Shown: positions 19,153 through 64,000, counted from the stretch's first letter. The stretch is 64,000 bases of DNA from an uncultured Gemmatimonadales bacterium (GCA_963730185.1 CAVSQW010000002.1:32001-96000); one strand, 5' to 3'. Program-made: numbers and translations. Notes: generated by a model not told the origin, from the sequence alone.

Positions 19153-19155
19153 TCC

Positions 19156-21106: not shown

Positions 21107-21109
21107 TCC

Positions 21110-25374: not shown

Positions 25375-25381
25375 AGCCGAC

Positions 25382-27389: not shown

Positions 27390-27490
27390 CACGGCTTGAC
27401 GGAAGTAGTGTCCTCTCCGGGAAGAGTGGGTCGGCCGACCGTCCCCCGCTCGGCATGTTCCCGCGCCGTTCGGACGGTCAAGGGAGTCGG

Positions 27491-47071: not shown

Positions 47072-47078
47072 AGCGCGG

Positions 47079-47964: not shown

Positions 47965-47971
47965 GGGCGTT

Positions 47972-48967: not shown

Positions 48968-48974
48968 GCGGAGC

Positions 48975-49340
48975 ATGAGCGAGACACCAGCATCCCGGGC
49001 GGTCGTGTGCCAGGCGGGGGGGCAGCGCTTCGCGTTGGCGCTGGAAGACGTGCGCGAAGTTTGCACGGACGTACTGGTGGTCCCGATGCCGGGAGTTGCA
49101 GCTCCGGTCGAGGGTGTCGCGAATGTTCGCGGGACGGTGGTGACCGTGGTGCGCGCCGCCGACCTGCTGGGCGTGACGCCGACCCGATCGGGGCCCTCGC
49201 CGTGGCTGGTCGTTCTCCGATTTCGGGACGGACGAGTGGCCCTCGGCGTCGAGGACATCGAAGATCTGGCGCCGGTCGGGATCGGCTTGAGTCGATTGGC
49301 GGTCGACGCACACCTCGGTCCGCTGTTTGGATCGCGCTAA
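48975..49340 (+). CDS. cheW: CheW-like adaptor (short)
   Basis: FALALEDVREV, PMPG...VEGVANVRGTVVTVV and VALGVEDI. Confidence 0.85.
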   Translation: MSETPASRAVVCQAGGQRFALALEDVREVCTDVLVVPMPGVAAPVEGVANVRGTVVTVVRAADLLGVTPTRSGPSPWLVVLRFRDGRVALGVEDIEDLAPVGIGLSRLAVDAHLGPLFGSR

Positions 49341-49352
49341 CTGGAGGCTCTT

Positions 49353-49715
49353 GTGGGGCACACGGTTCTCGTTTGCGACGACGCGATGTTCATGCGGACT
49401 ATGATCGCCGACATCCTCACCCAAGCCGGGTTCGAGGTGGTGGGCGAAGCGGAGTCGGGTGAGCAGGCGCTCGCCCGGTACCGGGAGCTCAAGCCCGATC
49501 TGGTCACCATGGACATCGTGATGCCCAACATGGGCGGAATCGAGGCCGTCCGGGCCATCTGCAAGGAAGATCCGGAGGCCAAGATTCTGATGTGCAGCGC
49601 GATGGGACAGCAGGCCCTGGTGGTGGAGGCCATCCAGGCCGGCGCCAAGGACTTCGTCGTCAAACCCTTCCAGCCTTCCCGCGTTCTGGAGGCGGTTCAG
49701 CGGCTCCTGGGGTGA
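49353..49715 (+). CDS. cheY: CheY response regulator (Bacillus/Thermotoga type)
   Basis: DDAMFMR, PDLVTMDIVMP, SAMGQQ and AKDFVVKPF. Confidence 0.93.
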   Translation: MGHTVLVCDDAMFMRTMIADILTQAGFEVVGEAESGEQALARYRELKPDLVTMDIVMPNMGGIEAVRAICKEDPEAKILMCSAMGQQALVVEAIQAGAKDFVVKPFQPSRVLEAVQRLLG

Positions 49716-49722
49716 GCCCGCG

Positions 49723-51330
49723 GTGGATCTGAGCCGCTATACCGCCCTCTTCCTCGCTGACACCCGGGAGCATCTCGACCGGGCCAGCCGGATCTTGCTC
49801 GACTGGGAGCGCGAGCCTGGAACGCTCGAGCCGGTGGCCGAGCTGTTCCGGGCGTTCCACTCGGTCAAAGGCTCGGCGGCCACGATGGAGTACACGGCCC
49901 TGGCCGACCTGGCGCATGCCGCCGAGCACCTGCTCGACGCCGTCCGGAAGGGTGACCTCGGGCCGTCGCGGGCGGTGGTGAGCCTGCTGCTTCGAGCGGT
50001 CGACGTGCTGGAGCGGGGCGCGGAGCTGGTGGTGGCCGGCGAAGCGGTGCCGGACGCGCCGGCGCTGGTGGGGGTCCTCGAGCGGATGGTTGCGTCCGGG
50101 GCGCCGCCGGCGCCCGCCGAGCCCCCGCTGGAGCGCCGGACCCCGACCCGCGTCCCCCGGCCCTCGGCCCGCTTTACCCTGTCCGCGGTCCGGGTCGACC
50201 GGAGCCGGCTGGACGAGCTCCTCCACCGGGCGGCCGAGCTGGTGGTGGCGCGGAATCGGCTGGACGGGCTCGTCGCCAGGAGCAGCGACCCCGAGCTCGA
50301 GGCGGTCGCCGGCCAGGTCGGGACCTTGGCCCGGTCGATGCACGCCGGAGTGCTCCGGGCCCGGCTGGCCCCGGTCGCTGAGCTCTTCGACCGGCTGCCC
50401 CGGGTGGCCCGGGACCTGGGGCAGTCGCTCGATCGGGAGGTGGAGCTCAAGCTTCGGAGCGACGGGATCGAGTTGGATCGCGGGATGCTGGAGGAGTTGC
50501 TCGACCCGCTGGTGCACTTGGTGCGGAACGCGGTCGATCACGGCATCGAGCCCCCCGCCGAGCGGCTGCTCGCGGGCAAGCCGCCCGAGGGGCGGCTTCT
50601 CCTCAGCGCCTCGCGGGAGCGGGAGTTCGTCACCGTGCGTCTAGCCGACGACGGACGGGGCATCGACCGCGACGCGGTCGCCCGGCGGGCCGAAGAGGCC
50701 GGACTTCGGCCGGCCGGCCGGCCGCCGCCCGACGACCACGAGCTCCTCGGGCTGCTGGCTCGGCCCGGGTTCACGCTCCGGCACGAGGTCACCTCGATCT
50801 CGGGACGTGGCGTCGGGATGGACGTGGTGCTGAGCACCGTGCGCAGCCTGGGCGGCCAGGTCGAGGTGAGCTCGGAGCCCGGACAGGGCACCACCTTCAC
50901 GCTGACCCTGCCGCTCACCACCGCGATTCAGCGGGTGCTCCTGGTGGGGGCGGCTGGCGAGCGGTACGCGATCCCCTTTCGGATCGTGGCCGAAGCGGTG
51001 CGGGGGCCCGGGCCGGCGGCGACCGAAACGACCGGGGGGCGGTTTAGCTTTCGGGATCGCTCGTTGCCGATGGTGGACCTGGCCCGCGCGACCGGGCTGA
51101 AGGGAGCGACGGCCGGGCGGGTGCGTCCGATGCTGGTGCTCGAATGGGGGACCCGGCAGGGCGCGCTGGCGGTCGACGCCGTGCTGGGGCAGCTGGACGT
51201 GGTGATCGAGCGGGTGGAGGCGCCGGTCGGCCTGCCCGCCTGGGTGAGCGGTGCGACCATTCTTGCCGACGGGTCGCCCGCACTGGTGCTGGATCCAACC
51301 GCCCTGTTCCAGGCGGAGGCCTCGCGATGA
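49723..51330 (+). CDS. cheA: Chemotaxis histidine kinase CheA (no P2 domain)
   Basis: FRAFHSVKG, PLVHLVRNAVDHGIE, SGRGVGMDVV and a C-terminal CheW domain. 535 aa. Confidence 0.92.
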   Translation: MDLSRYTALFLADTREHLDRASRILLDWEREPGTLEPVAELFRAFHSVKGSAATMEYTALADLAHAAEHLLDAVRKGDLGPSRAVVSLLLRAVDVLERGAELVVAGEAVPDAPALVGVLERMVASGAPPAPAEPPLERRTPTRVPRPSARFTLSAVRVDRSRLDELLHRAAELVVARNRLDGLVARSSDPELEAVAGQVGTLARSMHAGVLRARLAPVAELFDRLPRVARDLGQSLDREVELKLRSDGIELDRGMLEELLDPLVHLVRNAVDHGIEPPAERLLAGKPPEGRLLLSASREREFVTVRLADDGRGIDRDAVARRAEEAGLRPAGRPPPDDHELLGLLARPGFTLRHEVTSISGRGVGMDVVLSTVRSLGGQVEVSSEPGQGTTFTLTLPLTTAIQRVLLVGAAGERYAIPFRIVAEAVRGPGPAATETTGGRFSFRDRSLPMVDLARATGLKGATAGRVRPMLVLEWGTRQGALAVDAVLGQLDVVIERVEAPVGLPAWVSGATILADGSPALVLDPTALFQAEASR

Positions 51331-51950
51331 TGGATGCTTCGAAGCTGACCGACGTGGAGCGCGACGCGCTGCGCGAGATCGCCAACATCGGGGCCGGGCA
51401 CGCGGCCACGGCCCTGTCGCAGATGACGGGTCGCCGGATCATGATCGACGTGCCCGAGGTCTCGGTCAAGCGGCTGGAGGAGGCCAGCGATCTGATCGGT
51501 CCGCCCGACACGATCATCGCCGCCGTGCTGATGCACATGATGGGCGACATGACCGGCCGCACCCTCCTGGTCCTGCCCGAGGGGAGCGCCCGCGCCCTCT
51601 GCGCCATCCTGCTCCGCAACGCGGCCCAGGACGGTCCCGGGTTCACCGACATGCAGCGCTCCACCGTGATGGAGACCGGCAACATCCTCTGCAGCGCGTA
51701 CCTCAACGCGCTCTCCGACTTCATGGGGATGATGCTGCTCCCGTCGGTGCCGGCCCTGGTGGTCGATCAAGCCGGCGCCGTGCTCACCACGGCCTATCTC
51801 AACTTCGGCCACGCCCGCGATCACGTGATCTGCGTCGAGACCTCGTTCCGGATCGACGGCTCGCCCGAGCAGCTGAGCGGCCAGTTCATCCTGATGCCGG
51901 ACGTCGCGTCGTTGGCGGCGATCTTCGACGCGATCCGTCTCCCCCGGTAG
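51327..51950 (+). CDS. cheC: CheY-P phosphatase CheC
   Basis: Two ExxN motifs: DALREIANIGAGHAATALS and ETGNIL. Confidence 0.92.
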   Translation: MMDASKLTDVERDALREIANIGAGHAATALSQMTGRRIMIDVPEVSVKRLEEASDLIGPPDTIIAAVLMHMMGDMTGRTLLVLPEGSARALCAILLRNAAQDGPGFTDMQRSTVMETGNILCSAYLNALSDFMGMMLLPSVPALVVDQAGAVLTTAYLNFGHARDHVICVETSFRIDGSPEQLSGQFILMPDVASLAAIFDAIRLPR

Positions 51951-51954
51951 GCGG

Positions 51955-54627
51955 ATGACGGGGTCCGGGTCGTCGGAGCGGGAGCTCGGTGTCCTGCGCT
52001 CCCTCGCGCGGCGGATCGATCCGTCGGACCCGGGCGCGCACAACAACCTCGGGGTGCTCTACTACGAGCGCGGGATGGTGCCCGAGGCGATCGCCGCGTT
52101 CGCCCGGGCGCTCGAGCTCGATCCGCACATGCGGGTGGCCCAGGACAACCTCGAGGCCGTCCAGCGCGAGACCGGCTTCTACGACCGCCGGATCCACGAG
52201 CTTCGAGAGCAGGTGCTCCGCCAGCCGTCCGACCGCCAGCTGAAGCTCGAGCTCGGCCGGGCCTATCTCGCCCTGGGGCAGTTCGACCGGGCGGCCGAGC
52301 AGTTCGAGGATCTGCTCAAGGGGCACCCCAACGACGGTACCGCCCTGGTGCAGCTTGGTCTGGTCGAGCACGCGCGGGGCCGCCAGGAGACCGCCACCGG
52401 CTGGTTCGAGCGGGCCTGCGAGGTGGATCCCAAGAGCACCGTCGCCCGGCTCTACCTCGGCCAGGCCCTCTACAACCGGGGCCTGGTGGACGCCGCCCTC
52501 GCGGTGCTGAGCGAGGCCGCCGCCCTCAATCCCGACCACGCCGACGTCCAGTACCTGCTCGGCTTCGTGTACGGCGACCTCGGGTATCACGACGCCGCCC
52601 GCGCCGCCACCCGCCGGGCCATCGGGCTCAATCCGTCGCTGGGGACCGCGCAGACCAACCTCCGGATCGGGGGCCGGCCGAACCCGTCGGCCCCCGACCC
52701 GCCTCGGGCCCCGGTTCGGGTCGACCAGTCGGGCGGCGAAGCCCATCTCCACCTGGCCGAAGCGTTTCGGCGGCGCGGGTATCTGGTCGAGGCTCTCCGG
52801 GAGTACCGGCTGGCGCACGAGAGCGGGGAAGACCCCCGGGCCGCGCTCGAGGGCATGGCCGAGATCTATCTCCTCAAGCGGGAGACCCGGAACGCCCTGG
52901 AGCTCTACGACCGGCTGCTGGCCGAGGCGCCCGACGCGGCCAAGCTCTGGACCGAGCGCGGGGTGGTCCTCCACCAGGCCGGCCGCCGGGACGAGGCCCG
53001 GGCGGCCTACGATCGGGCCCTCGAGGCCGACCCGGGTTACGCGCTGGCCTGGAACGACCTCGGCGTGCTCCGGGCCGGCGACTCCGACCCCGGCCCGGCC
53101 GCCGAGGCGTTCGAGGCCGCCTTGGGCCGGCGCCCCGACTTCGTGGCCGCCCGGCTCAACCTCGCCCTCCTCCACTTCCAGCGGCAGCGGCTCCAGCTCG
53201 CCCTGGAGGGCTACCGGGCGGTGCTGGCCGAGGAGGCCGAGCACCCGGTGGCCTGGAATGGGGTCGGCCTGGTCCTGATGGAGCTCAAGCGCTACGCCGA
53301 TGCCCGGAACGCCTTCGGGCGGGCGGTCGAGGCCGACCCCGACTCCGCCGCGGCCCACTACAACCTCGGGTTCGCCCTGAGCCAGCTCGGCGCCTTCGAC
53401 GACGCCCTCCGCGAGACCCGCCGCGCCCTGGAGCTCGATCCGTTCTACGTACCCCAGAAGTTCGCCCTCTCGATCGAGCTCCAGCTCACCGAGTCGCTCC
53501 TCCCGATCGCTCCCTCGCTGGTGGGCGACGTGGCCGCCGACGCCGCGGCCGAGGACTTCAGCTTCGACCCCGCCGCCCTCGACGAGCTATTCGTCGAGCT
53601 GGCGCCCGGCGAGTCGGCCGCGCCGGTGGCACCGGTCGATCCCTACTCCCTGGTCCGCGACCTGGTCGGGAAGGGGCTCCTGGAGTCGGCCACGGCGGAG
53701 GTGCACCGGGTGCTCCGGCGGGGGGGGCCGGCCGGTCCGGGGATCGCGCTGCTCGGGACGATCTTCGCCAAGCGGGGCCTTCACGGCGAAGCCCTGGAAC
53801 GGTTCCGCGAAGCCCGCCGTGAGTCGCCCGACGATGCCGGTATCCTCCTCGGCGAAGCGACCTCGCTCCTCGCCCTGGGCCGCTCCCGCGAGGCGGCCGA
53901 GACCGCCGACGAGCTGGTCCGGCGCCGCCCCGACGACGCCGAGGCCCTGGTGGTTCGGGCCCGGGCCCGGCTGGCCGAGGGCGATCTAGGCGGCGCCCAG
54001 GACGACGCGCTCGGCGCCCTCGCGGCGGCGCCGGGCCGGGCCGACCTGCTGGTGCTTCGGGGCGTGGTCGCCCGGCGCCTCAACGACCCCGAGGAGGCGC
54101 TCGATGCGTTCCGGGGGGCGGTCGACCTGGAGCCCGACCTGGTCCAGGCCTGGTACGAGATCGGGATGGTGGAGGAGGAGCGCCGTGATCCGGCCGCGGC
54201 CCGCGCGGCCTACGAACGCGCCCTCGCCATCCTGCCGACCTATCTCGAAGCGGGGTTGGCCCTGGCCGAACTGCATCGCCGGCAGGGGCGCACCGGGGAC
54301 GCGGTCCGGCTGCTGGTCGACCTCCTCCTGGTGGAGCCCTACGCCTTCGACGCGCTCCTCCTGCTGGGTCGCACGCTGGCCGACGAACGCCGCCACCAAG
54401 ATGCCGTGGTGGCCTTCAACCGGGTCCTCCAGTTCTTGCCCGAGCACACGGTCGCCCGCTTCTATCGGGGCGTGTCGCTCAACGCCCTCGGGCGGTTCGA
54501 CCTGGCTCTGGCCGATTGGGATGAGACGCTCCGGCTCGCCCCGACCGGTCCGCTCGCGGCGGCCGCCCGGGCCCAGGCCCGCTCCACCCGGGACCTCCTC
54601 CACATCCTGCAACCGGTGGAGGTGTAG
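51955..54627 (+). CDS. Large tetratricopeptide repeat protein (890 aa)
   Basis: Repeated TPR consensus segments (AHNNLGVLY...ALELDP, AWNDLGVL, AWNGVGLVL, AHYNLGFAL). No signal peptide. Confidence 0.9.
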   Translation: MTGSGSSERELGVLRSLARRIDPSDPGAHNNLGVLYYERGMVPEAIAAFARALELDPHMRVAQDNLEAVQRETGFYDRRIHELREQVLRQPSDRQLKLELGRAYLALGQFDRAAEQFEDLLKGHPNDGTALVQLGLVEHARGRQETATGWFERACEVDPKSTVARLYLGQALYNRGLVDAALAVLSEAAALNPDHADVQYLLGFVYGDLGYHDAARAATRRAIGLNPSLGTAQTNLRIGGRPNPSAPDPPRAPVRVDQSGGEAHLHLAEAFRRRGYLVEALREYRLAHESGEDPRAALEGMAEIYLLKRETRNALELYDRLLAEAPDAAKLWTERGVVLHQAGRRDEARAAYDRALEADPGYALAWNDLGVLRAGDSDPGPAAEAFEAALGRRPDFVAARLNLALLHFQRQRLQLALEGYRAVLAEEAEHPVAWNGVGLVLMELKRYADARNAFGRAVEADPDSAAAHYNLGFALSQLGAFDDALRETRRALELDPFYVPQKFALSIELQLTESLLPIAPSLVGDVAADAAAEDFSFDPAALDELFVELAPGESAAPVAPVDPYSLVRDLVGKGLLESATAEVHRVLRRGGPAGPGIALLGTIFAKRGLHGEALERFREARRESPDDAGILLGEATSLLALGRSREAAETADELVRRRPDDAEALVVRARARLAEGDLGGAQDDALGALAAAPGRADLLVLRGVVARRLNDPEEALDAFRGAVDLEPDLVQAWYEIGMVEEERRDPAAARAAYERALAILPTYLEAGLALAELHRRQGRTGDAVRLLVDLLLVEPYAFDALLLLGRTLADERRHQDAVVAFNRVLQFLPEHTVARFYRGVSLNALGRFDLALADWDETLRLAPTGPLAAAARAQARSTRDLLHILQPVEV

Positions 54628-55779
54628 GTGGCGATCCAGGGTCCGCTCCGCGAGCTCGGCATCCACGACGTCTTCCAGCTCCTCGATCTGGGCCGGAAGA
54701 CCGGGTTGCTCCGGATCGTGTCCGAACTCCGCCAGAACGAGGGCACGATCTGGTTCCACGAGGCCGCGGTGGTCGGCGCCACCATCCGCTCCAACCCGCA
54801 TCTGCTGGGGCAGCAGCTGCTTCGGGCGGGCAAGGTCCGGAACGAGGACCTGGCCCGGGCTGAGGCGCTCAAGGACGGCGGCGACGGCCGCCGGATCGGC
54901 GAGATGCTGGTGTCGTTCGGCGCGATCACCGCGCGGGAGCTCGCCACCCAGGTCCGGCTCCAGATCGAGGAGGTCGTGTTCACCCTGCTCGGGTGGTCGG
55001 AGGGCCACTTCATCTTCGAGGAGCGGAGCGCCGACGCCATCCCGCGCGAGGCCGACGTCCGGATCTCGGTCGAGTCGCTCCTGCTCGAGGCGGCCCGCCG
55101 GATCGACGAGTGGTCCCGGATCCGCACCCGGATCCCGCACCTCGGCGTGATTCCCCGGCTGGCGCCCTCCCAACAGGAGGAGGCCGGCTCGTTGGTGTTG
55201 ACGCCGTTCGAATGGCGGGTGCTGGCGGCGTCCGACGGCGTGCGCGACGTCCAGGCCCTCGCCGTCACCATGAGCGAGCCGGAGTTCGACGTGGCTCGGG
55301 CCATCTTCGGGCTGGCTTCCGCCGGGGTGGTGATCGTCCGCGACCCGGTGGAGGAGTCGGCGGCGGCGGCCCCGCGGGAGGACGCTGGGCCCCTGTTGGC
55401 GGAAGCCGAGCGGTTGGTGAAGGCCGGGAACTTCGAGGCGGCCCGGAGCATGGCGAGCGCCGCCTTCGACGCCTTCCCGAACGACCCCCGTCCGTATCTT
55501 TTGGTAGGACGAACGTTGATCGCTGAGCAGCGCTTCGACGAGGCGGAAGCGCCGCTTCGGGAGGCGGTCCGGCTCGATCCGGCGTCACCTCGGGCCCTGC
55601 GGCTGCTCTCCTGGTCGCTGCTTGGCACCGGTCGCCTCGGCGAAGCGGTGCACGGATTCGAGGCCTGGCTGGCGCTCCCGTCGCTCGGCCCCGAGGAGGA
55701 ACGGCGGGTCGCGTCGGTCGGCGCGGCCATTCCGGCGGCCCGGCAGTTGGCCGCGTTGCTCAGAGGCTCGCATGACTGA
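54628..55779 (+). CDS. DUF4388 (PATAN-like) + MshEN-like + TPR protein
   Basis: IQGPLRELGIHDVFQLL...KTG, LLGQQLLRAG...RIGEMLVSFG, LLLEAARRIDE and a C-terminal TPR region. Confidence 0.82.
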   Translation: MAIQGPLRELGIHDVFQLLDLGRKTGLLRIVSELRQNEGTIWFHEAAVVGATIRSNPHLLGQQLLRAGKVRNEDLARAEALKDGGDGRRIGEMLVSFGAITARELATQVRLQIEEVVFTLLGWSEGHFIFEERSADAIPREADVRISVESLLLEAARRIDEWSRIRTRIPHLGVIPRLAPSQQEEAGSLVLTPFEWRVLAASDGVRDVQALAVTMSEPEFDVARAIFGLASAGVVIVRDPVEESAAAAPREDAGPLLAEAERLVKAGNFEAARSMASAAFDAFPNDPRPYLLVGRTLIAEQRFDEAEAPLREAVRLDPASPRALRLLSWSLLGTGRLGEAVHGFEAWLALPSLGPEEERRVASVGAAIPAARQLAALLRGSHD

Positions 55780-56563
55780 CGACATCGCGACGATGACCGT
55801 GCAGCTGGCGCAGGATCCGACCAGCCTGGTGTTTCTGCCGCTGGCCGAGGCGCTCCGCGGCCGGGGACAGCTGGACGCCGCCCTCACGGTCGCCCTCCGT
55901 GGCCTGAGCCGCTATCCCGAGGTGGCCGACGCCTACGACTTGGTCGCTCGGATCCAGTGCGATCGGGGCGACGGCGACGCCGCCTTCGATGCCTGGACCA
56001 ATGTGCTCCGCCTCGCGCCCGACCATCTGGGCGCGCACAAGGGGCTCGCCTTTCTCTTCTACCGCGGCGGCGAGGTCACCCGGAGTCTCCGCCACCTGAC
56101 CCGGGCGCTCGAGATCGCGCCCGGCGACGCCAGCCTCACCGCCGCGGTCGACCGGATTCGGATCCAGGCCGAGGCCGGCCTCGAGCGGCCCAGCGTGCCG
56201 GACCAGGCGGCGCCGCAGGCGGTCCGCCGGGGGGGCGACCAGGCCACCCTGCTGTTCGATCAGCAGGGGCGGGTGCTCCGGGGCGACGTGGTGCGGCCCG
56301 ACGGCAGCGACGCCAGCGAGGCCGTCGCCGCAGGCCTGGCCGGCGTGAGTCGGGAGGCCGAGCGCACCGCCCGGATGCTCGGCCTGGGCGAATGGCGGGC
56401 CATCGCGGTCGAGGGCGGGCCGGTCAACTACGAGATTCGGAGCCCGTCCGAGGAGACCCTCCTGCTCCTGATGCGGGGGCGCGAGGTGCCGGCCGGTCGG
56501 CTGTCGCGGATCGCCGATCGCGCCGTCGCTGACTCGGTGCGCTGGCTGGAGGAACTGGAATGA
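55772..56563 (+). CDS. TPR + Roadblock/LC7-like fusion protein
   Basis: QDPTSLVFLPLAEALR followed by TPRs. The C-terminal LLFDQQGRVL...AAGLAG...LGLGEWRAIAVEG pattern is Roadblock-like. Confidence 0.72.
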   Translation: MTDDIATMTVQLAQDPTSLVFLPLAEALRGRGQLDAALTVALRGLSRYPEVADAYDLVARIQCDRGDGDAAFDAWTNVLRLAPDHLGAHKGLAFLFYRGGEVTRSLRHLTRALEIAPGDASLTAAVDRIRIQAEAGLERPSVPDQAAPQAVRRGGDQATLLFDQQGRVLRGDVVRPDGSDASEAVAAGLAGVSREAERTARMLGLGEWRAIAVEGGPVNYEIRSPSEETLLLLMRGREVPAGRLSRIADRAVADSVRWLEELE

Positions 56564-56910
56564 CCTTTCCCGAACAGGCGGTCCTCGATGAGGTCACCCG
56601 GCTGCCGGGAGTCCGGAGCGCGCTCCTGGTCGGGCTCGAGGACGGGATCGTGGTGGCCGAGACCGCGCTCGAGGGAGAGGACACCCGGGCGGCGGCGGCC
56701 CTGGCGGCCCGGCTGGCCCAGCGCCTGGCCGAGCTGCCTCGAACGGTCGGCCATCCCGCCCTCACCATGATCCTGCTTCAGGGCTCGGAGGGACAGCTCT
56801 TCGCTGCCCCGGGTGGCGACGGCTTGCTGCTGGTCGCGGTGGCGGACAACGACGTGAACATCGGCGAGGTGCGGCTCGCCCTGCTCGACGCCGCGGGGCG
56901 GCTCAGCTGA
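56560..56910 (+). CDS. Roadblock/LC7 domain protein (MglB/MglC-like)
   Basis: LPGVRSALLVGLEDGIVV...AAAL...VNIGEVRL. 116 aa. Confidence 0.85.
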   Translation: MTFPEQAVLDEVTRLPGVRSALLVGLEDGIVVAETALEGEDTRAAAALAARLAQRLAELPRTVGHPALTMILLQGSEGQLFAAPGGDGLLLVAVADNDVNIGEVRLALLDAAGRLS

Positions 56911-57371
56911 TGCGAGCCATCGAGCCCTGGGTCGAACGGCCGCTGGCGGGCTTCGTGGAGGAGTCCGGGGCGCGGATCGCGGTCCTGATGACCGGAGCGG
57001 GCCAGGTGGTGGCCCAACACGGCTTCACCCGGTCGCTCGACCTGATGTCGGCCGCGGCGCTCGGCGCCGGCATCGTGGCGTCGACCCGCGAGATGGCTCG
57101 CGAACTGGGTTCGGACGGGTTCGGAGCGATCGTTCACCAGGGCCAGCAGCTGGGCGTGTTTCTCGCCCCGTTCGATCTCCCCGCCGCGTCGTGGATCGGC
57201 CTGGTCGTGTTCGGGCCGGAGACCTCACTCGGGCTGGTGCAGCTCTTCTTCGATCAGATGGTGGACGGGCTGACCCGGGCGGCGCCGCGCGAGGCGCCCG
57301 CGCGCCAGGTCTTGCCCGAGGCCTTCGAAGACGAGCTGAACGCCAGCCTGCGCGCCCTCTTTGGACGGTGA
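56910..57371 (+). CDS. mglB: MglB-type GAP (Roadblock/LC7)
   Basis: AVLMTGAGQVV...AAALGAG...HQG...VFGPETSLGLVQL resembles Myxococcus MglB. Directly upstream of mglA. Confidence 0.8.
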   Translation: MRAIEPWVERPLAGFVEESGARIAVLMTGAGQVVAQHGFTRSLDLMSAAALGAGIVASTREMARELGSDGFGAIVHQGQQLGVFLAPFDLPAASWIGLVVFGPETSLGLVQLFFDQMVDGLTRAAPREAPARQVLPEAFEDELNASLRALFGR

Positions 57372-57374
57372 CCC

Positions 57375-57977
57375 ATGCCGCTCGTCAACTTCACCGCCCG
57401 CGAAATCACCTGCAAGCTGGTCTACTACGGACCGGGCCGCTGCGGCAAGACGACCAATCTCCAGTACATTCATGGCCGGGTGCCGGAGCACCGCCGGGGT
57501 CGGATGGTCTCGCTGGCCACCCAGTCCGATCGCACCCTCTTCTTCGACTTCCTGCCCCTCGAGCTGGGGGTGATCTCCGGGTTCACCACCCGATTCCAGC
57601 TCTACACCGTGCCGGGTCAGGTCTACTACAACGCCACCCGCCGGCTGGTGCTCCAGGGCGCCGACGGGGTGGTGTTCGTGGTCGACAGCCAGGCCCGCCG
57701 GTTCGACGACAACATCGAGAGCTTCCAGAACCTGCAGGAGAATTTCCTGGATCAGGGGGTCGACATCCGCCAGGTGCCGCTGGTGCTCCAGTACAACAAG
57801 CAGGACCTGCCCGCCGATCTCGTCCTCGGTCCCTCCGATCTCGACGAGACCTTCAACTTCCGCTCCGTTCCCAGCCTGCCGGCCGACGCCCTGCACGGCA
57901 CCGGCGTGTTCGAGACGCTCAAGGCGCTGTCCACGCTCGTCCTGCAACGGCTCGCCGCGCGGCCGCCGACGCTGTGA
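57375..57977 (+). CDS. mglA: MglA small Ras-like GTPase
   Basis: REITCKLVYYGPGRCGKTTNLQYI, DRTLFFDFLP, LYTVPGQVYY and QYNKQD. Confidence 0.95.
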   Translation: MPLVNFTAREITCKLVYYGPGRCGKTTNLQYIHGRVPEHRRGRMVSLATQSDRTLFFDFLPLELGVISGFTTRFQLYTVPGQVYYNATRRLVLQGADGVVFVVDSQARRFDDNIESFQNLQENFLDQGVDIRQVPLVLQYNKQDLPADLVLGPSDLDETFNFRSVPSLPADALHGTGVFETLKALSTLVLQRLAARPPTL

Positions 57978-59950
57978 CGGACCCGTTCGCTTTGTTCGTC
58001 ACCGATCCGGCCAATGCGGCGGCGGTGGCAGCGGCCCGGACGGTCGCCGATGCGAGCCGTACCCTCTACGGCCCCCTGGTGATGGTGGGAATCCGGGGCG
58101 CCGGGAAGTCGCATCTTCTCCGCGCCGTGCGTGACCGGGCCGCCGCCCAGTCGCCCCCCCGGCGGGCGGAGCTCATCTCGCTCCTTCGGCTCGCCGACGT
58201 GGTGCACGCCCGCGGCTTGGGCGAGGGGGGATCGGCGCTTCGCGACCGGCTGCTCGACGCCGACCTGCTGCTGATCGACGATTTCGAGGCGGTGACCCGC
58301 CATCTGCCGGTGCAGGCCTTCGTCTTCGACCTTCTCGAATCGCGGATCACCAAGGGCCGCGAGGTCGTGGTCGCGAGCGCCCTGCCGGTCGCCGGGCTGG
58401 CCGGTCTCGACGCCCGGCTTCGCCGCCGGCTCGAGGCAGGCACCGTCGTCACGCTCGGGCTTCCCGGCTCCGACGCCAGGCAGGTGATCCTGGACCGGCG
58501 GGTGGCCGAAAGCGGCGTTCGCCTTGCGCCGGCGGTGGTCGAGGCCCTGGCCCACCAGCCGTTCCGGTCGATCAAGGAATACCTGGGCGCGCTCCAGCGG
58601 GTCCTCGCCTTCCAGCAAACGACGCCCGAAGCGCTCTCGGCGGCCGACGCGCTGGCGTTGCTCGGCCTCGAGAGCACCAACGGGCGCCTCGGTCCGGCCG
58701 AGGCCGGACCAGCCCCCGCCGCTGCCGACGCACCCCAGGAGCCGCCCAGCCTCGAGGAAGCGGAGTTCGACGCCTTCCTCTCCGAGGTCGTGGCCAACGT
58801 TTCGCATCAGTTCGACCGGTGGCGGGGCCGGATTCGCGAAGCCATCGCCCACTGGCAGTCGCGGGGCCTCCGGGCCCGTCGGCTGGAGCGGGCCCTGACC
58901 GACGAGATGGGCGGCGACCCGGAGCCGGTGATCAGCGACTTCGGCCGCGACGCCACCGAGCTGGAGCGGCTGGTGGCCGAGGTTCGAGCCATCGCGCCCG
59001 ACCTGGCCGGCGCCGAGGTCCTCCGTGATCCCGATCAGCTCCCGGCCGCCCGCGAGCTGGTGGACGAGGCCCGGCGCCGGCGGGCCCCGCTGTCGGCCCC
59101 GTTGCCGGAGCTCACCCTCGACACCCTCGGCGTGGGCCCCTCCAACCGGCTGGCCGTCGAGGCGGCCCGCGCCCGGGTGGCCGACGCCGGCGGGCAGGAC
59201 AACCCCCTGGTCGTGGTCGGGGCCAGCGGGTTGGGCAAGACCCATCTGCTCCACGGGATCGGTAACGCGCTGATCGAGCGACAGGTCTCACCCATCGCTT
59301 GCCTGAGCGCCCACAGCTTCCTGGGCGAAGTCTCCGCCCTCCGGACCGCGGAGGAGACCGCCGCCTGGCGGACCCGCTATCAGTGGGTGGCCGGCCTCCT
59401 GGTCGACGATCTTCACGTGCTCGCCCACGAGGGCCGCGCCCAGGAGGAGCTGCTCCAGATCTTCGGGGCGCTCGCCGACGGCGGCCGCCCCCTGGTCTTC
59501 GCGTCGGCCCGCCGGCTGAGCGAGCTCGAGGGCTTCGATCCCCGGCTCCTGACCCGGCTCGAGGCGGGCCTGGTGGTGGAGATCCTCCCGCCCGATCGAG
59601 AGGTGCGCCTGACCGTCGTCAAGGCGCTGCTGGCCGGCACTCCCATGGCCGACGACGCCGCGCTGATCGACTACCTCGCCGGCCGCCCGGCCGACTCCAT
59701 CCGGGCGGTGCAGGGGGCGGTGCATCGAGTGCTCGGTGAAGCGCGGGGCCAGCGGGTCACGCCCTCGCCCGCGCTGGCCCGCGAGGTGCTCGAGGTGGTC
59801 TTGTCCAAGGGCACCCGGCCGGGCCGGCGGAGCGCGACCCCGCGAGGGAGCGGGATCCTCTCGCCCGGGATGGGGGTGGTCCGAAGCCGGGAGAAGATGA
59901 TTCAGCGCTGGCCGCACCCGGCCGAGCGGCTGATGGTGGAGCTGCGCTGA
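57974..59950 (+). CDS. Protein with two tandem DnaA/Hda-type AAA+ domains, lacking DnaA domains I and IV
   Basis: Domain 1: FALFVTDPANAAA...GIRGAGKSHLL...LLLIDD...RLRRRLEAG. Domain 2: VGPSNRLA...NPLVVVGASGLGKTHLL...LLVDD...QEEL...RLLTRLEAG. The GTG start overlaps the mglA stop. Confidence 0.85.
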   Translation: MTDPFALFVTDPANAAAVAAARTVADASRTLYGPLVMVGIRGAGKSHLLRAVRDRAAAQSPPRRAELISLLRLADVVHARGLGEGGSALRDRLLDADLLLIDDFEAVTRHLPVQAFVFDLLESRITKGREVVVASALPVAGLAGLDARLRRRLEAGTVVTLGLPGSDARQVILDRRVAESGVRLAPAVVEALAHQPFRSIKEYLGALQRVLAFQQTTPEALSAADALALLGLESTNGRLGPAEAGPAPAAADAPQEPPSLEEAEFDAFLSEVVANVSHQFDRWRGRIREAIAHWQSRGLRARRLERALTDEMGGDPEPVISDFGRDATELERLVAEVRAIAPDLAGAEVLRDPDQLPAARELVDEARRRRAPLSAPLPELTLDTLGVGPSNRLAVEAARARVADAGGQDNPLVVVGASGLGKTHLLHGIGNALIERQVSPIACLSAHSFLGEVSALRTAEETAAWRTRYQWVAGLLVDDLHVLAHEGRAQEELLQIFGALADGGRPLVFASARRLSELEGFDPRLLTRLEAGLVVEILPPDREVRLTVVKALLAGTPMADDAALIDYLAGRPADSIRAVQGAVHRVLGEARGQRVTPSPALAREVLEVVLSKGTRPGRRSATPRGSGILSPGMGVVRSREKMIQRWPHPAERLMVELR

Positions 59951-61566
59951 TGGCGATCAAGGGCAGCCTCAAGGAGGCCAGCCTCCCCGACGTGATCCAG
60001 CTGCTCTTCTTCGGGCGGCGGACGGGGTGTCTGGCGCTGGCCGATCGGCAGCGCTTCGGCTCGATCTTCTTCGAGGACGGCTGGATCGCCTACGCGACGA
60101 TCGTGAACCGGCGCGATCGGCTGGGCGACATCCTGCTCCGGGCCGGGACCATCAGCCGGGAGCAGCTCGACCAGGCCCTCGCCATGCAACAGGTCTCGCG
60201 GGGCCGGCGTTTGGGCGAGATCCTGGTCAGCCTGGGCGCCCTGGCGCCGGAAGAGCTCCGCCGGCTGCTCCGCTTTCAGATCGAGGAAGCGGTCTACGCG
60301 CTCTTCTCCTGGTCGACCGGCACCTTCACCTTCGATGCCGGCGTGCGCCCCGAATGGGAGGGCGATCTCGACCGGATCAACCCCGAAAACCTGTTGCTCG
60401 AGGGTGCCCGCCGGGTGGACGAGTGGAGCCTGATCGAGAAGAAGATTCCGTCGTTCGACGCCGTCTTCTCCGTCGACCGGGGCGCGCTGGCCAACCCCGC
60501 GCTCAGCTTCACCGAGGCGCAGCGCCGGATCCTGCCGCTGCTCGACGGCGAGCGCGACACCCGCGAGGTCATCGACGCCTCCGGCCTCTCCGATTTCGAG
60601 GCCGCGCAGGCGCTGTTCGGGCTGATCACCGCGGGGCTGGCCCAGCGGACCGGAACCTCGTCCAAGGCGGCGCCGTCGCGGCTGCTCGAGGCCCAGCTCG
60701 ACGAGCACCGAAACCTGGGCGTGGCGTTCCTCCGAAGCGACATGCTCGACGAGGCCTCCCGCGAGTTCCGCCGGGTCATGGAGCTGCGGCCGTCCGAAGG
60801 AACCTCGCCATTCTATCTGGGCGTCATCGCCGCCCGCCAGGACAACTGGCCCGACGCCGTCACCCTCTTCCGGCAGGCGCTCGACCGGAGCGGCCCCCGC
60901 GGCGCGATCCTTCACAACCTGGCCGTGGCCCTCGAGGCGATCGGCCGGACCGACCAGGCCGACGCCATCGGCGCCGAGGCCGCGAGCCGGCTGCCGGACG
61001 ACCCCAGGATCTTCCTCGACTGGGGGATCCTGGCTCTCGAGCGCGACGAGCCCCAGGTGGCCTGGGCCCGGCTGGATCGCGCCCGCGAGCTCTTCGGAGT
61101 GGCGGCCCCGCCGATCTGGTTCTGGGCTGCCGCGCTGACCCAGGTGGCCCTCGACCAGATCGAATCCGCCGTGAGCCTGGCGCGCGAAGGCGTCACGGCC
61201 TTTCCTCAGCACAGCGTGCTCCGGAACAACTACGCCGTCCTGCTCGAGGCCACCGGTGCCTTTACCGAGGCGCAGGTCCTCCTCGAGGAGATCATCGGCG
61301 ACGAGCCGTCGCAGCCCCAGCCGTTCAAGAACCTGGGCGATCTCTACTACCGGGGCGGCCGCTACGAGGACGCCGCCCGGGTTTACGAGCGGGCGGCCAC
61401 GATCGCCCCCGAGCTGGGCGACGATCTCTTCTTCAAACTCGGGAACCTCGCCTTCCGGGGGCGGGAAGCGTCCCGGGCCCGCGAGTTCTGGGAGCGGGCC
61501 CTGGCGCTCAACCCGGGGCACCAGCTGGCCCGGGCCAACCTCGAGCTCTTGCCGGTGTCCGCATGA
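59950..61566 (+). CDS. DUF4388 (PATAN-like) + MshEN + TPR protein
   Basis: IKGSLKEASLPDVIQLL, RLGDILLRAGTISREQLDQALAMQ...RLGEILVSLG, LLLEGARRVDE and many TPRs. Confidence 0.85.
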   Translation: MAIKGSLKEASLPDVIQLLFFGRRTGCLALADRQRFGSIFFEDGWIAYATIVNRRDRLGDILLRAGTISREQLDQALAMQQVSRGRRLGEILVSLGALAPEELRRLLRFQIEEAVYALFSWSTGTFTFDAGVRPEWEGDLDRINPENLLLEGARRVDEWSLIEKKIPSFDAVFSVDRGALANPALSFTEAQRRILPLLDGERDTREVIDASGLSDFEAAQALFGLITAGLAQRTGTSSKAAPSRLLEAQLDEHRNLGVAFLRSDMLDEASREFRRVMELRPSEGTSPFYLGVIAARQDNWPDAVTLFRQALDRSGPRGAILHNLAVALEAIGRTDQADAIGAEAASRLPDDPRIFLDWGILALERDEPQVAWARLDRARELFGVAAPPIWFWAAALTQVALDQIESAVSLAREGVTAFPQHSVLRNNYAVLLEATGAFTEAQVLLEEIIGDEPSQPQPFKNLGDLYYRGGRYEDAARVYERAATIAPELGDDLFFKLGNLAFRGREASRAREFWERALALNPGHQLARANLELLPVSA

Positions 61567-62366
61567 GCCTCGTCGACCATCCCGCCTTCGGTCGGGTGAC
61601 CGAGCACCTCGAGCGGCTGGGCGCCGGGGCGTTCGTGCTGTACAAGACGCCCTGCCTGGAGCGGCGGCTCGCCTCCCGGATCCGGGCCCGCCGCCAGCAC
61701 GGCCTGGCCGAGTACGCCGCCCTGCTCGACAGCGATGCCGGTGAGCGCGACCGGCTGGTGAGGGCGCTCTCGATCGGCGTCACCAGCTTCTTCCGGAATC
61801 CGACGGCGTGGCGCCGGCTCGCCGAGCTGCTCGAGGAGCGGAAGCCGGCGGGCGGGCTCCGAGGCTGGAGCGCCGGCTGCGCGAGCGGCGAGGAGGCCTG
61901 GTCGCTGGCCATGGTCCTCTCCGATCGGGCCCTCACCGGGTCAGGCGACCCGACCGCCTTCCGGGTCGACGCCACCGATCTCGACCTGGCCGGGCTGGCC
62001 CTCGGTCGGATGGGCGAGTATCCCGGGCAGGTAACCGCGCCCCTTCGGCTGGCCGGCGACCTTCGCCACGGTCGGCTGGTGGGTGACCGGTTCCTGGTGG
62101 AGCCGGCGCTCCGGGGGCGAGTCCACTTCCGCCGAGACGATCTCACCGAGTCGCGGGTGCGCGGGCCGTACGACGTGGTCACCTGCCGGAACGTGCTCAT
62201 CTACTTTGGCGACGAGGGGCAGTCGCGGGCCTTGGCCGCGCTGGTTCGCTCCCTCGCGCCGGGCGGCCTCCTGATGCTCGGCCGGGCCGAGCTCGCCGCC
62301 CGATCGGTTGCCGAGGAGCTGGAGATCGTCGACTCGCGGGAACGGATCTACCGGAGGGTCGAATGA
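61563..62366 (+). CDS. cheR: Protein-glutamate O-methyltransferase CheR
   Basis: VTSFFRNP, WSAGCASGEE, ATDLD, CRNVLIYF and LAPGGLLMLG. Confidence 0.92.
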   Translation: MSLVDHPAFGRVTEHLERLGAGAFVLYKTPCLERRLASRIRARRQHGLAEYAALLDSDAGERDRLVRALSIGVTSFFRNPTAWRRLAELLEERKPAGGLRGWSAGCASGEEAWSLAMVLSDRALTGSGDPTAFRVDATDLDLAGLALGRMGEYPGQVTAPLRLAGDLRHGRLVGDRFLVEPALRGRVHFRRDDLTESRVRGPYDVVTCRNVLIYFGDEGQSRALAALVRSLAPGGLLMLGRAELAARSVAEELEIVDSRERIYRRVE

Positions 62367-62851
62367 CGGGGCTCCGGGTCGTCGTCCGGGTGAGCGGCCT
62401 GATCGTGGCCGAGGCGCCGGCGACGCTCGTGGCGCTCGCCCTCGGGAGCTGCGTCGCGATCGCCCTCTACGATCCCCAGGCCAAGATCGGCGGCATGGCC
62501 CACGTGCTCCTGCCCTCGGCGGCGATGGGACGGGACCAGGGACAACCTGGCCGCTTCGCCCAGACCGCGGTGCCCACCCTCCTGGAACGGCTGATTGCCC
62601 GGGGTGCGCGGGCGCCGGCCATCACCGCCCGGCTGGTCGGCGGGGCCAGCATGTTCACCTCGCTGGCCCCTCCGGGCACCATCCAAATGGGCGACCGGAA
62701 CGTGGTGGCGGCCCGCGAGGCGCTCCACCGCAACGGCATCCGCCTGGTCGGTGAAGCGGTCGGCGGCGACTTCGGCCGGACGGCCGAGTTCGACGTGGAG
62801 ACCGGCCGGATCCGGGTCGCCTCGTACCTCCGCGGCGAGCAGCTGCTGTGA
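62363..62851 (+). CDS. cheD: Chemoreceptor glutamine deamidase CheD
   Basis: LGSCVAIALYD, GGMAHVLLP, GGASMF and GDRNV. Confidence 0.93.
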   Translation: MTGLRVVVRVSGLIVAEAPATLVALALGSCVAIALYDPQAKIGGMAHVLLPSAAMGRDQGQPGRFAQTAVPTLLERLIARGARAPAITARLVGGASMFTSLAPPGTIQMGDRNVVAAREALHRNGIRLVGEAVGGDFGRTAEFDVETGRIRVASYLRGEQLL

Positions 62852-63726
62852 CCGACGTCCGACGGACGGCCTGGCTGGCCGCGCTGGTCGAGGAGCTCGA
62901 CGCGATCGACCGCGAGCTCGAGGCTGGCGCCGCCGATCGGGCTCGTCTCAAGACCCGGATCGTCGCCACCTTCCGCCAAGTGGAGGGGAGCCTGTCGGAG
63001 CTCGGCGGCCTCAAGGACCGGATCAAAGGGCAGGTGGACCGCTTCAAGCAGCTCGCCACCAGCGGCCCCGGCCACCCCGACCCGGCCGAGGCGGGGCCGA
63101 TGCCGGTGCGGGCCGACCACCTCGGCGCCTCGACCTTCATCGAGAAGGGCTGGAGCCTGATCTCGGCGGGCGACCCCGCTGGTGCGATCGACGCGCTCCA
63201 CCGAGCGCTCGAGCTCGCCCCCGACGACGTCCACGCGAAGGCCCTCGTTGGATGGGCCCAGATGCTCGGGGAGCACTATGACGACGCCCTGGTGACCTTC
63301 TCCGAGGTGCTGGCCCGCGAGCCCGCCCACGCGCTGGCCCGGGTGAACGTGGGCTTCATCTGCCTCAAGAAGCGAATCTTCGGCGAGGCGATCGAGCACC
63401 TCTCCCGGGTCATCCGGCTCGACAACGACCGGAAGGCCACGCTGTACGCCCACTACTATCTGGGACTCGTCTACCTCGAGCGGGCGATGTACCTCGACGC
63501 CGAGACCTTTCTCACCAAGGCCATCGCGCTGGGGCCGAATCTGATCGAGGCGTACTACGACTTGGGGCGGGCCCGCTGGTTCGCGGGCGATCAGGAAGGG
63601 GCCCGCGCCACCTGGCGCAAAGGGGCCAAGGCCAACAAATATGCTCCGTGGGCCAAGCGTTGCCAGGAACTCCTCGAAGCCGTCGAGCGCGGCGAGTCGG
63701 TGCCGCCCTCCTCGCCGGCGGCCTGA
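62848..63726 (+). CDS. Coiled-coil + TPR protein
   Basis: N-terminal heptad helix followed by TPRs (AHYYLGLVY, AYYDLGRA). Confidence 0.82.
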   Translation: MTDVRRTAWLAALVEELDAIDRELEAGAADRARLKTRIVATFRQVEGSLSELGGLKDRIKGQVDRFKQLATSGPGHPDPAEAGPMPVRADHLGASTFIEKGWSLISAGDPAGAIDALHRALELAPDDVHAKALVGWAQMLGEHYDDALVTFSEVLAREPAHALARVNVGFICLKKRIFGEAIEHLSRVIRLDNDRKATLYAHYYLGLVYLERAMYLDAETFLTKAIALGPNLIEAYYDLGRARWFAGDQEGARATWRKGAKANKYAPWAKRCQELLEAVERGESVPPSSPAA

Positions 63727-64000
63727 TCGTCGCCGGGCCCGTCCGGGCCCAGGCGCAGCGTGAGATCGTCCGGGTAGGGCAGGCGACCGCGCTGGCGGCT
63801 CCGTCCGATCTCGATCTGGCGGTGGCCCTGGCCGAGCGAGCCGACCAGCCGGCCGAGTATTACGGCCTGGGACGGCGGTCGATCGGCCCCGTCGCGATCG
63901 CCGTGGTGCGGGGCCGGGGCGGGTTCGACTCGGTCTCGCGGGGCCGGATCCCGTCGTGGGGCGCGGGGCTCGCCCTGCCGGCCGCCCGCTTCATCGCGAT
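63660..64000 (+). CDS. Partial secreted protein, possibly a peptidase MA-like metallohydrolase (runs off the window)
   Basis: Open frame from TTG 63660 with signal-like RRARRVGAALLAGGLIVAGPVRAQ, ending GRIPSWGAGLALPAARFI. No HExxH motif is visible within the window. Confidence 0.45.
   Translation, partial: MPGTPRSRRARRVGAALLAGGLIVAGPVRAQAQREIVRVGQATALAAPSDLDLAVALAERADQPAEYYGLGRRSIGPVAIAVVRGRGGFDSVSRGRIPSWGAGLALPAARFIA

Follow-up and report, generated by a model that had tools for sequence, protein, structure and literature searches.

The stretch of DNA analysed here (the window) comprises 64,000 nt of an uncultured Gemmatimonadales bacterium (GCA_963730185.1 CAVSQW010000002.1:32001-96000; 71% G+C) and lies on contig C2 of an assembly of 5.27 Mb in 17 contigs that is 82% complete; coordinates are window positions unless a contig is named. 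Between 48975 and 63726 it carries an array of 15 plus-strand genes in which an MglA-family GTPase (mglA2) with Roadblock proteins, a tandem DnaA-type AAA+ ATPase (DnaA2x) and two PATAN-TPR proteins are encoded amid chemosensory genes, and which we examine as a candidate polarity switch.

Genes were called from a listing of open reading frames (ORFs) with inspection of start codons, and domains were assigned with Pfam and NCBIfam profiles (Table 1). The result agrees with the first-pass annotation of this DNA, which had listed the same 15 co-oriented genes in the same order, overlapping or at most about 12 bp apart, with the Mgl block nested between cheC and cheR/cheD. The 14 junctions range from -8 to +12 nt, and ATGA/GTGA/TGATG-type overlaps occur at nine of them, most junctions being overlaps of 1, 4 or 8 nt.

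Table 1 Genes of the array and its immediate flanks, with the matches on which each assignment is based.
Gene or product	Position	Strand	Evidence
rluD	47894-48967	+	PseudoU_synth_2 + S4; ends 7 nt before cheW
cheW	48975-49340	+	Pfam CheW 59.2 bits
cheY, single-domain response regulator	49353-49715	+	Response_reg 110.8 bits
cheA	49723-51330	+	Pfam Hpt, H-kinase_dim, HATPase_c, CheW, all above cut-offs
cheC, CheY-P phosphatase	51327-51950	+	Pfam CheC 77 bits
890-aa all-TPR protein	51955-54627	+	many TPR families (Pfam)
PATAN(DUF4388)-TPR protein 1 (PATAN-TPR1)	54628-55779	+	DUF4388 (PF14332) 96.4 bits, cut-off 25
TPR protein with weak C-terminal Roadblock	55772-56563	+	TPR_19, TPR_2; Robl_LC7 18.1 bits, below cut-off 23
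Small Roadblock/LC7 protein	56560-56910	+	Robl_LC7 47.1 bits
MglB-like Roadblock protein	56910-57371	+	Robl_LC7 32.6 bits, cut-off 23
mglA2, MglA-family GTPase	57375-57977	+	phmmer against M. xanthus MglA
Tandem DnaA-type AAA+ ATPase (DnaA2x), 658 aa	57974-59950	+	Bac_DnaA 181 bits, 2 stretches
PATAN-TPR protein 2 (PATAN-TPR2) with MshEN-type insert	59950-61566	+	DUF4388 124.9 bits, cut-off 25
cheR, methyltransferase of methyl-accepting chemotaxis proteins (MCPs)	61563-62366	+	CheR 121 bits, CheR_N
cheD, MCP deamidase	62363-62851	+	CheD 93 bits
292-aa TPR protein	62848-63726	+	TPR_2, TPR_1
Peptidase_MA_2 gene, start only	63648-64000	+	Pfam; runs past window end

Conservation and natural variants of the array

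The same gene order, between rluD and the division and cell wall (dcw) cluster, is kept in 40 other Gemmatimonadota genomes examined, drawn from the order to which the window belongs (three families) and, within the class but beyond that order, from families f4 and f8. Because synteny holds in these 40 genomes, a chance arrangement is excluded, and the conservation on which the first-pass annotation had made its reading depend is observed. When the window proteins were laid on 20 loci from the window's order, all 20 showed the same order as far as their contigs reach; cheR and cheD are missing in G022, cheR is missing in G029, and a Roadblock match is sub-threshold in three. Of five loci from the other families of the class, three (f4, f8) are complete. 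By far the highest conservation in the array is that of CheY and MglA2, whose median identities outside the genus reach 81% and 72%, as against 33-58% for most of the other genes; the 292-aa TPR protein, at 58%, is the last array gene in nearly all relatives, and both the 890-aa TPR protein and the TPR/weak-Roadblock protein are syntenic.

DnaA2x is full-length in 18 of 21 genomes of the same genus and in all three families of the order. A survey of 401 sampled genomes of the phylum (match threshold E<=1e-35) found the DnaA-like gene in 163 of 166 genomes of the window's family (f1), 71 of 93 of f2 and 5 of 5 of f3, in smaller shares of f4 to f8 and in none of the 23 sampled from f9 to f12; at values near 1e-36 a match may represent true DnaA, and the count includes one unpublished genome (G183). 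For the N-terminal PATAN region of PATAN-TPR2 there are 661 related stretches in species-representative genomes, and all but two of the best 80 carry the labels Gemmatimonadales, Gemmatimonadota or Gemmatimonas; of the two, one is labelled Limnocylindria and the other just 'bacterium'. A 6.3-kb contig labelled Candidatus Limnocylindria (Chloroflexota), which may be mis-binned, encodes a PATAN-TPR2 that is 65% identical.

Outside the window's genus, cheB, an AAA_22 ATPase gene and two more cheW genes stand between cheD and the last TPR gene. The window's genus has lost these four, and tblastn finds none of them elsewhere in the window's genome. In family f2 the AAA_22 (ExeA/MshM-like) ATPase gene is located between cheB and the two extra cheW genes (L055 16790-17587, L059 16238-17320).

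Natural deletion variants lose blocks of the array while the remainder stays in place, and the array is therefore modular. G103 holds only che genes (cheW-Y-A-C and cheR-cheB) and PATAN-TPR2, without the Mgl block, PATAN-TPR2 still being placed between cheC and cheR. G031 has the full array minus the ATPase, and G194 only rluD-mglA-PATAN-TPR2; the ATPase of G115 and G307 has a single module (AAA+ module 1), with the middle domain and the tail. The Mgl block occurs with zero che genes in G140 and with cheY-cheA-cheC, lacking cheR, cheD and cheB, in G075. Two genomes of family f7 read ileS-rluD-DnaA2x-PATAN-TPR2, then a peptidase gene, with neither adjacent che genes nor mglA2; the f7 genome G248 has neither FlhA nor CheA. 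PATAN-TPR2 is the sole gene common to every array variant.

A second MglA with a predicted Roadblock partner

MglA proteins are characterized by a P-loop, a Thr in place of Asp in the G3 motif (TxxGQ; Thr78) and an intrinsic arginine in a DRTLFFDF stretch. MglA2 carries the P-loop GPGRCGKT, the sequence TVPGQ and the arginine of SDRTLFFDF, and it aligns with M. xanthus MglA (6hjh_A) over residues 1-193 at 2.7e-70 and 239 bits (phmmer). Judged by these motifs, MglA2 is a true MglA-family GTPase. Both genes of the MglAB switch that had been read into the locus are present, with the qualification that MglA2 is an extra paralogue: a canonical mglB-mglA pair is found on contig C15, where MglA scores 291 bits against M. 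xanthus MglA. Array genomes have two MglA genes, and the genomes without mglA2 (G103, G248, G273) have one.

The MglB-like protein combines a Roadblock/LC7 fold, a gene that ends 3 nt upstream of mglA2, and similarity to solved MglB structures (1.2e-08 with 6h5b_B, phmmer), the features by which we recognize an MglB; its NCBIfam MglB score is 34 bits, below the cut-off of 200. It is predicted to be the GTPase-activating protein (GAP) of the adjacent MglA2. The small Roadblock protein may have an MglC-like accessory role. The 890-aa TPR protein matches no specific NCBIfam equivalog, its 234 bits with MamA arising via repeats only, and it is a candidate MglA-GTP effector or scaffold.

A tandem ATPase derived from DnaA

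In DnaA2x a helical middle domain separates the two AAA+ modules (1 and 2), and module 2 is followed by a disordered linker and a conserved helix at the C-terminus. The double DnaA-like ATPase recognized at first pass is borne out both by Bac_DnaA, which matches in two stretches, and by the AlphaFold2 (AF2) model (predicted local distance difference test, pLDDT, 81.3; predicted template-modelling score, pTM, 0.44), in which AAA+ modules occupy residues 1-230 and 375-612. The model further shows long helices at 264-370, disorder at 234-279 and 612-646, a short terminal helix at 649-657 and, apart from that helix, no further folded domain at the C-terminus.

When 14 orthologues are aligned, the Walker A (G42, G44, K45) and Walker B (D102, D103) residues of module 1 are invariant in 14 of 14 sequences and box-VII-like arginines are conserved in both modules (R148, R152; R524, R528). 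The middle domain is helical and family-specific, and the linker is variable. In module 2 of the two f7 proteins the arginines are retained, the Walker motifs being degenerate. The chain ends in a conserved tail, 'SREKVVWxWP....RLVEELR' ('W.WP....(V/I)EE.R'), in which W646 is invariant and which is kept even in the single-module ATPase variants. That such a tethered terminal helix occurs in a TPR-rich operon suggests that it could dock as a peptide in a TPR groove.

By sequence, module 2 aligns with domain III of the B. subtilis, T. maritima and A. aeolicus DnaA proteins at 1e-21 to 2e-30, and its fold matches DnaA domain III (2z4r, 8bv3) with a TM-score (TMt) of 0.86-0.87 and a root-mean-square deviation (rmsd) of 2.7-2.9 Å (Foldseek). 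A kinship of the whole DnaA2x model with p97/Cdc48/Rix7 was rejected: the Foldseek rmsd of 15-22 Å reflects the double-AAA+ layout only. DnaA2x is not a DnaA replication initiator, which would join domain III to domains IV and I, for it has no Bac_DnaA_C or DnaA_N match at E<=0.01 (Pfam), that is, no DnaA domain I or IV, and its TIGR00362 score of 280 bits is below the cut-off of 344. A normal DnaA is encoded elsewhere, on contig C9. Its matches in the protein Atlas were only DnaA/Hda-named clusters of 590-663 aa, most commonly from Gemmatimonadota, with no functional name.

A predicted c-di-GMP-binding insert in PATAN-TPR2

Both PATAN-TPR proteins match PF14332, which defines the PATAN (DUF4388) domain. 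They are not PatA-type regulators, in which PATAN is joined to a C-terminal receiver, as they carry TPR repeats and no Response_reg domain. The AF2 model of PATAN-TPR2 (pLDDT 86.7, pTM 0.54) contains a four-helix insert (58-119) inside the PATAN beta-sheet domain, then a small alpha/beta domain and TPR repeats at 244-537. PATAN-TPR2 scores 65.2 bits with the MshE-related cyclic di-GMP (c-di-GMP) model NF053729, passing its cut-off of 38. With the relaxed 24-residue MshEN motif given in the methods of Wang et al. 2016, we find one exact match, at residue 87; the first motif copy misses one position, a T at a hydrophobic site, and both copies match exactly in 7 of 13 relatives. The tandem arrangement of an MshEN domain (two 24-residue RLGxx(h)(h)xxG(h)(h)xxxxLxxxLxxQ-type motifs) is accordingly present in PATAN-TPR2 and absent from PATAN-TPR1, whose helical insert is half MshEN-like, with one match to the relaxed motif.

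On these grounds the insert of PATAN-TPR2 (residues about 57-110) is predicted to bind c-di-GMP. Two candidate c-di-GMP readers had been proposed for the array; PATAN-TPR2 passes the MshEN model and is retained, and PATAN-TPR1 fails it. The insert is present in 16 of 16 loci with the DnaA-like gene (14 aligned, plus G115 and G307) and cleanly deleted in three of three loci without it (G103, G031, G194).

Chemosensory genes, receptors and flagella

The array CheA contains the Hpt (P1), dimerisation (P3), HATPase (P4) and CheW-like (P5) domains that define a CheA, and Pfam finds neither a P2 domain nor a fused receiver (Response_reg) in it. It is one of two CheA proteins encoded in the genome, where the three CheW domains (PF01584) belong to the array cheW and to both CheA proteins; the array cheW is hence the only stand-alone CheW gene in the assembly. 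The genes cheC and cheD are each the sole copy in the genome (tblastn); their best NCBIfam matches, CheC_Thtogales (168 bits, equivalog cut-off 250) and CheD_Thtga (135 bits, cut-off 240), stay below threshold. A second cheR-like gene stands beside a CheB-methylesterase-like stretch outside the window, at C2:202329-203717 (-) (tblastn).

No MCPsignal domain is detected by Pfam in the 15 array genes, so that the array is not by itself a complete chemosensory pathway, in which an MCP is encoded with CheA, CheW and CheY. The description of the cluster as receptor-less is right for the cluster and not for the genome, in which contigs C15 and C1 encode two MCPs, a 695-aa GAF-MCP and a 477-aa MCP. 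Nor can the array be the self-contained switch it was first taken for, because it has no MCP gene yet carries cheR and cheD, whose targets are MCPs. The receptors would act in trans, and MCP presence tracks cheR/cheB in five relatives: with cheR/cheB present there are 3, 6 and 2 MCPs (G085, G100 and G031, respectively), and without them there are none, either in G075, which has no cheR/D/B, or in G140, which has no che genes. G075 (99% complete) is of interest in its own right, as it has cheY-cheA-cheC and no detectable MCP, cheR, cheD, cheB or cheW, and holds a candidate receptor-less CheA. Because CheA, CheY and CheC occur there without a detectable MCP, this one genome hints that proteins of the array itself can feed signals to CheA.

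We considered a flagellar role because the window also holds flagellar genes, motAB and a second CheA. The flagellar genes (16301-22582 (+) and 24544-26233 (-)) comprise flgF/G-like rods, flgA, flgH, flgI, flgN, flgK and motA/motB, and FlhA is encoded at about 11329-13287; flagella are a feature of the window's genus but not of most of its family. The second CheA (618 aa; 27455-29311 (+)) is encoded amid these flagellar genes, beside an HDOD gene and motAB. Among genomes at least 90% complete, FlhA (PF00771) is found in 17 of 100 genomes of the window's family, one of the 17 being a fragment, and PilT in 100 of 100. Ten FlhA-negative genomes were chosen among those with known coordinates of the DnaA-like gene: seven retain the complete che+mgl array, one more is cut by its contig and consistent with it, one has no cheR/D/B and one has no che gene at all. 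Since FlhA-negative genomes retain the array, its che genes are not a flagellar pathway in most carriers.

It is worth noting that other genes of the window may be related to c-di-GMP. The second CheA has a sub-threshold match to the MshE-related model over residues 153-205 (30.1 bits, cut-off 38), between its Hpt and dimerisation domains, and may be a c-di-GMP-binding CheA with an MshE-like segment in place of P2, as far as its sequence tells. Candidate c-di-GMP-related genes 20-25 kb upstream of the array are a REC + HD_5 (HD-GYP-like) gene (23351-24547 (-)), the HDOD gene (26348-27214 (+)) and a REC-GGDEF gene (29354-30316 (-)).

Proposed mechanism

Building on the observed gene content, order, conservation, modular variants, integrity of domains and motifs, and independence from flagella, we propose that this translationally coupled array is a chemosensory-driven polarity switch with a non-flagellar function, probably exerted on type IV pili, a proposal in which our confidence is a little better than even. 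Every protein-protein contact and the output of the circuit are inferred. MCPs encoded elsewhere would control CheA via CheW and would be adapted by CheR and CheD, together with CheB in relatives. The target of CheY-P, which CheC would reset, would be the PATAN-TPR/Roadblock assembly, by the logic of PatA-type PATAN-REC proteins but in trans. This would shift the GTP/GDP state of MglA2, with the MglB-like protein serving as GAP, and in its GTP form MglA2 would bring a TPR effector to the pilus motor at one pole. Binding of c-di-GMP to the MshEN insert of PATAN-TPR2 and the ATP cycle of the DnaA-type ATPase would be linked, and the tethered C-terminal helix of the ATPase would dock on a TPR partner. 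The interpretation given at first pass is partly supported: its reading as a polarity or surface-motility switch, hence a non-flagellar one, gains indirect support, the array being kept in FlhA-negative genomes that all have PilT, and what falls is its self-containment.

Several points weigh against this proposal. The pilus output is drawn by analogy from the roles of MglA and PATAN in Myxococcus and cyanobacteria, and PilT, which every sampled genome of the family has, cannot discriminate here. The genus of the window has flagella, and the assembly's only stand-alone cheW, cheC and cheD sit in the array, which may therefore serve the flagellar motor here as well; the assembly is 82% complete. 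PATAN-TPR1 scores 21.2 bits with NF053729, short of the cut-off of 38. The inter-domain geometry of both AF2 models is uncertain, as their pTM values of 0.44 (DnaA2x) and 0.54 (PATAN-TPR2) indicate. The three insert-less PATAN-TPR2 proteins form one clade (Shimodaira-Hasegawa-like approximate likelihood-ratio test, SH-aLRT, 98) in a quick IQ-TREE tree of 40 rows, in which L064 is a shortened sequence on a long branch. We therefore dropped the idea of three independent losses linking the MshEN insert to the ATPase; because there is one clade, the link is a single co-loss event, suggestive and not statistical.

Lastly, the f7 genomes hold only DnaA2x and PATAN-TPR2, and because f7 keeps only that pair, the two proteins must be able to work without the chemosensory and MglA2 parts. 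A bolder reading, which we put forward tentatively as possible though unlikely, takes the DnaA-derived ATPase and the c-di-GMP-reading PATAN-TPR as the core, a replication-initiator-type AAA+ switch repurposed as a second-messenger-gated cytoplasmic polarity timer or landmark, onto which MglA2 and the chemosensory pathway would have been grafted later in Gemmatimonadota. If true, it would define a new class of bacterial polarity machine, beyond a rearranged Frz-Mgl circuit.

Alternative explanations and flanking genes

It is improbable, in our judgement, that the che genes of the array are the flagellar chemotaxis pathway of this organism, with the Mgl/PATAN/DnaA-like block an independent unit that shares the operon by accident. 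The flagellar genes, motAB and FlhA of the window would fit such a pathway, as would the confinement of the stand-alone cheW, cheC and cheD to the array and the best matches of CheC, CheD and CheA, which are to Thermotoga- or Halobacterium-type (flagellar or archaellar) models; G103, which keeps cheW-Y-A-C-PATAN-cheR-cheB without the Mgl block, further shows that the two parts are separable. The same che genes nevertheless stand in the same place in 8 of 10 FlhA-negative genomes, and in G031 (98% complete), which lacks FlhA, the one CheA belongs to the array. Flagellar regions have che genes of their own: the second CheA in the window, and in G103, which has FlhA, a separate cheA2-cheW-cheB-cheR cluster on the FlhA contig. 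Even in G103, moreover, PATAN-TPR2 has not left its place between cheC and cheR.

The surroundings of the array lead to another explanation. Upstream, the ileS-dksA-like-lspA-rluD string (43898-48967, +) is tightly packed, co-oriented and overlapping, and precedes the array in every relative examined; Bacillus subtilis has the same four-gene string. Downstream, the Peptidase_MA_2 gene (HEXXH type) overlaps the final TPR gene by 79 nt, and past the window (C2:95001-111000) it is followed by a 503-aa TPR protein, an unknown 208-aa protein and the dcw cluster (mraW, a small ftsL-sized ORF, ftsI, a Mur ligase and mraY). This Peptidase_MA-to-dcw neighbourhood recurs in most relatives, the reduced f7 loci included. 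Because the tight packing continues into both flanks, the transcription unit may be longer than 15 genes. No RNA run was found among the public sequencing runs matching the stretch; four soil DNA runs matched it, each sharing a small fraction (0.05-0.14) of sampled words.

With this neighbourhood in mind, the core (DnaA-like ATPase and PATAN-TPR2, with the Mgl block) could mark a pole for growth, division or budding, the che genes being modulators; we hold this to be about as doubtful as the flagellar pathway. It would account for the position of the array directly upstream of Peptidase_MA-TPR-mraW-ftsL-ftsI-mur in every locus whose contig extends far enough, for an ATPase derived from a replication initiator, and for the f7 loci, in which DnaA2x-PATAN-TPR2-Peptidase_MA persists without che or mglA2 and, in G248, without FlhA and CheA. 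Gemmatimonas itself is named for bud-like division. The adjacency to ileS-lspA-rluD and dcw may, however, be inherited synteny without functional meaning, the ATPase has no DnaA domains I and IV and hence no evident link to oriC, and MglA/MglB and PATAN proteins of known function, in the parts of the literature cited here, act on motility machines.

Very improbable, finally, is a packing of unrelated operons by genome streamlining with no shared function, since, even though the packing runs into unrelated housekeeping genes (rluD at +7 nt, lspA, ileS) and consensus scans of 44001-64000 stay at chance level (one promoter-like site found against 0.6 expected by chance, three terminator-like sites against 4.5), the gene order persists throughout the class at ATPase identities of 31-42%, modules are lost in blocks with the rest in place, and comparable MglA-PATAN and MglB-PATAN linkage is recorded for other phyla in the portions of Wuichet and Sogaard-Andersen 2014 used here.

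Significance and comparison with known systems

Essentially only in Myxococcus is the coupling of a chemosensory pathway to a Ras-like polarity GTPase understood, and there it is a genetic link between scattered loci. If the array is the chemosensory-driven polarity switch that we propose, it places the whole circuit in one conserved locus, whose deletion variants show which parts travel together. It also contains two parts without a described polarity role, a DnaA-clade double ATPase without a DNA-binding domain and a PATAN scaffold with a predicted c-di-GMP insert, in a phylum of abundant soil bacteria whose cell biology is almost uncharted. The core is present in strains of Gemmatimonas in culture (GAU_1409; Table S2 of Wuichet and Sogaard-Andersen 2014), which makes the predictions directly testable.

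We found no description of the array or of the ATPase in the openly searchable full-text literature, which was the scope of the search, and a study of Geobacter che clusters (PMC2577667) contains no mention of MglA, roadblock, PATAN, DnaA, GTPase or TPR. The first-pass remark that no functional description of this architecture was known stands within that search; the MglA-PATAN neighbourhood, however, already appears in the Table S2 just cited. For G. aurantiaca T-27 that table lists 'MglB>MglA>' (GAU_1115) and 'PATAN>MglA>-PATAN>' (GAU_1409), the latter entry mentioning neither che genes nor an ATPase. In the portions of that survey used here, Gemmatimonadetes MglA is placed in Group 1 and MglA genes are said, citing Makarova et al. 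2006, to occur occasionally near PATAN genes. According to excerpts of Han et al. 2021 (bioRxiv), a cyanobacterial PATAN binds the N-terminal domain of PilB1 as well as PilC, and some DUF4388 proteins are annotated with GspE_N; PATAN proteins are also among the SgmX-proximal candidates in Myxococcus, according to an excerpt of Oklitschek et al. 2024.

The closest parallel is the Frz system with MglA/MglB(/RomR/MglC) of Myxococcus xanthus, which shares with the array a CheA/CheW/CheY pathway with methylation enzymes, an MglA GTPase, a predicted Roadblock GAP, extra Roadblock proteins and TPR proteins. Frz itself is marked by the CheA-CheY fusion FrzE, the double-receiver protein FrzZ and the cytoplasmic MCP FrzCD within the cluster. 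The array is not a Frz system, as its CheA has no fused receiver and it encodes neither a FrzZ-type double receiver nor an MCP. It also adds CheC, CheD, the DnaA-type ATPase and two PATAN-TPR proteins, and its MglA comes in addition to a canonical mglBA pair elsewhere in the genome. Furthermore, frz and mglBA are separate loci in Myxococcus (Wuichet 2014, as excerpted) and here form one array. The actinobacterial conservon (CvnA-D), as far as the descriptions used here go, likewise unites a histidine kinase, a Roadblock/MglB homologue and an MglA-family GTPase in one operon, but it has a membrane sensor kinase instead of CheA and no che adaptation genes, PATAN proteins or AAA+ ATPase.

A che-type pathway is joined to PATAN domains in the cyanobacterial Tax/Pix systems with PatA-type (PATAN-REC) regulators, where PATAN is an output domain contacting the pilus extension ATPase (Han et al. 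2021, as excerpted). In the array, by contrast, PATAN is fused to TPR repeats, CheY is separate, and an MglA module and an AAA+ ATPase are present. PATAN-TPR2 resembles the MshEN domains of MshE/PilB-type ATPases in its tandem 24-residue motif and its score with their model, but its MshEN segment is inserted inside a PATAN domain instead of being N-terminal on a secretion ATPase, and the accompanying ATPase is a separate protein of the DnaA (initiator) clade. With the DnaA/Hda/DnaC-IstB initiator clade DnaA2x shares Bac_DnaA in both modules and conserved Walker A, Walker B and box-VII arginines; it differs in having two AAA+ modules per chain, a family-specific middle domain, a disordered linker and a C-terminal helix, and from DnaA in lacking domains I and IV. 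By analogy, our best reading is that the array would work most like the Frz-to-MglA pathway and the cyanobacterial che-to-PATAN-to-PilB pathway while being a member of neither, and the pair formed by the ATPase and the PATAN-MshEN protein is the part most likely to be truly new.

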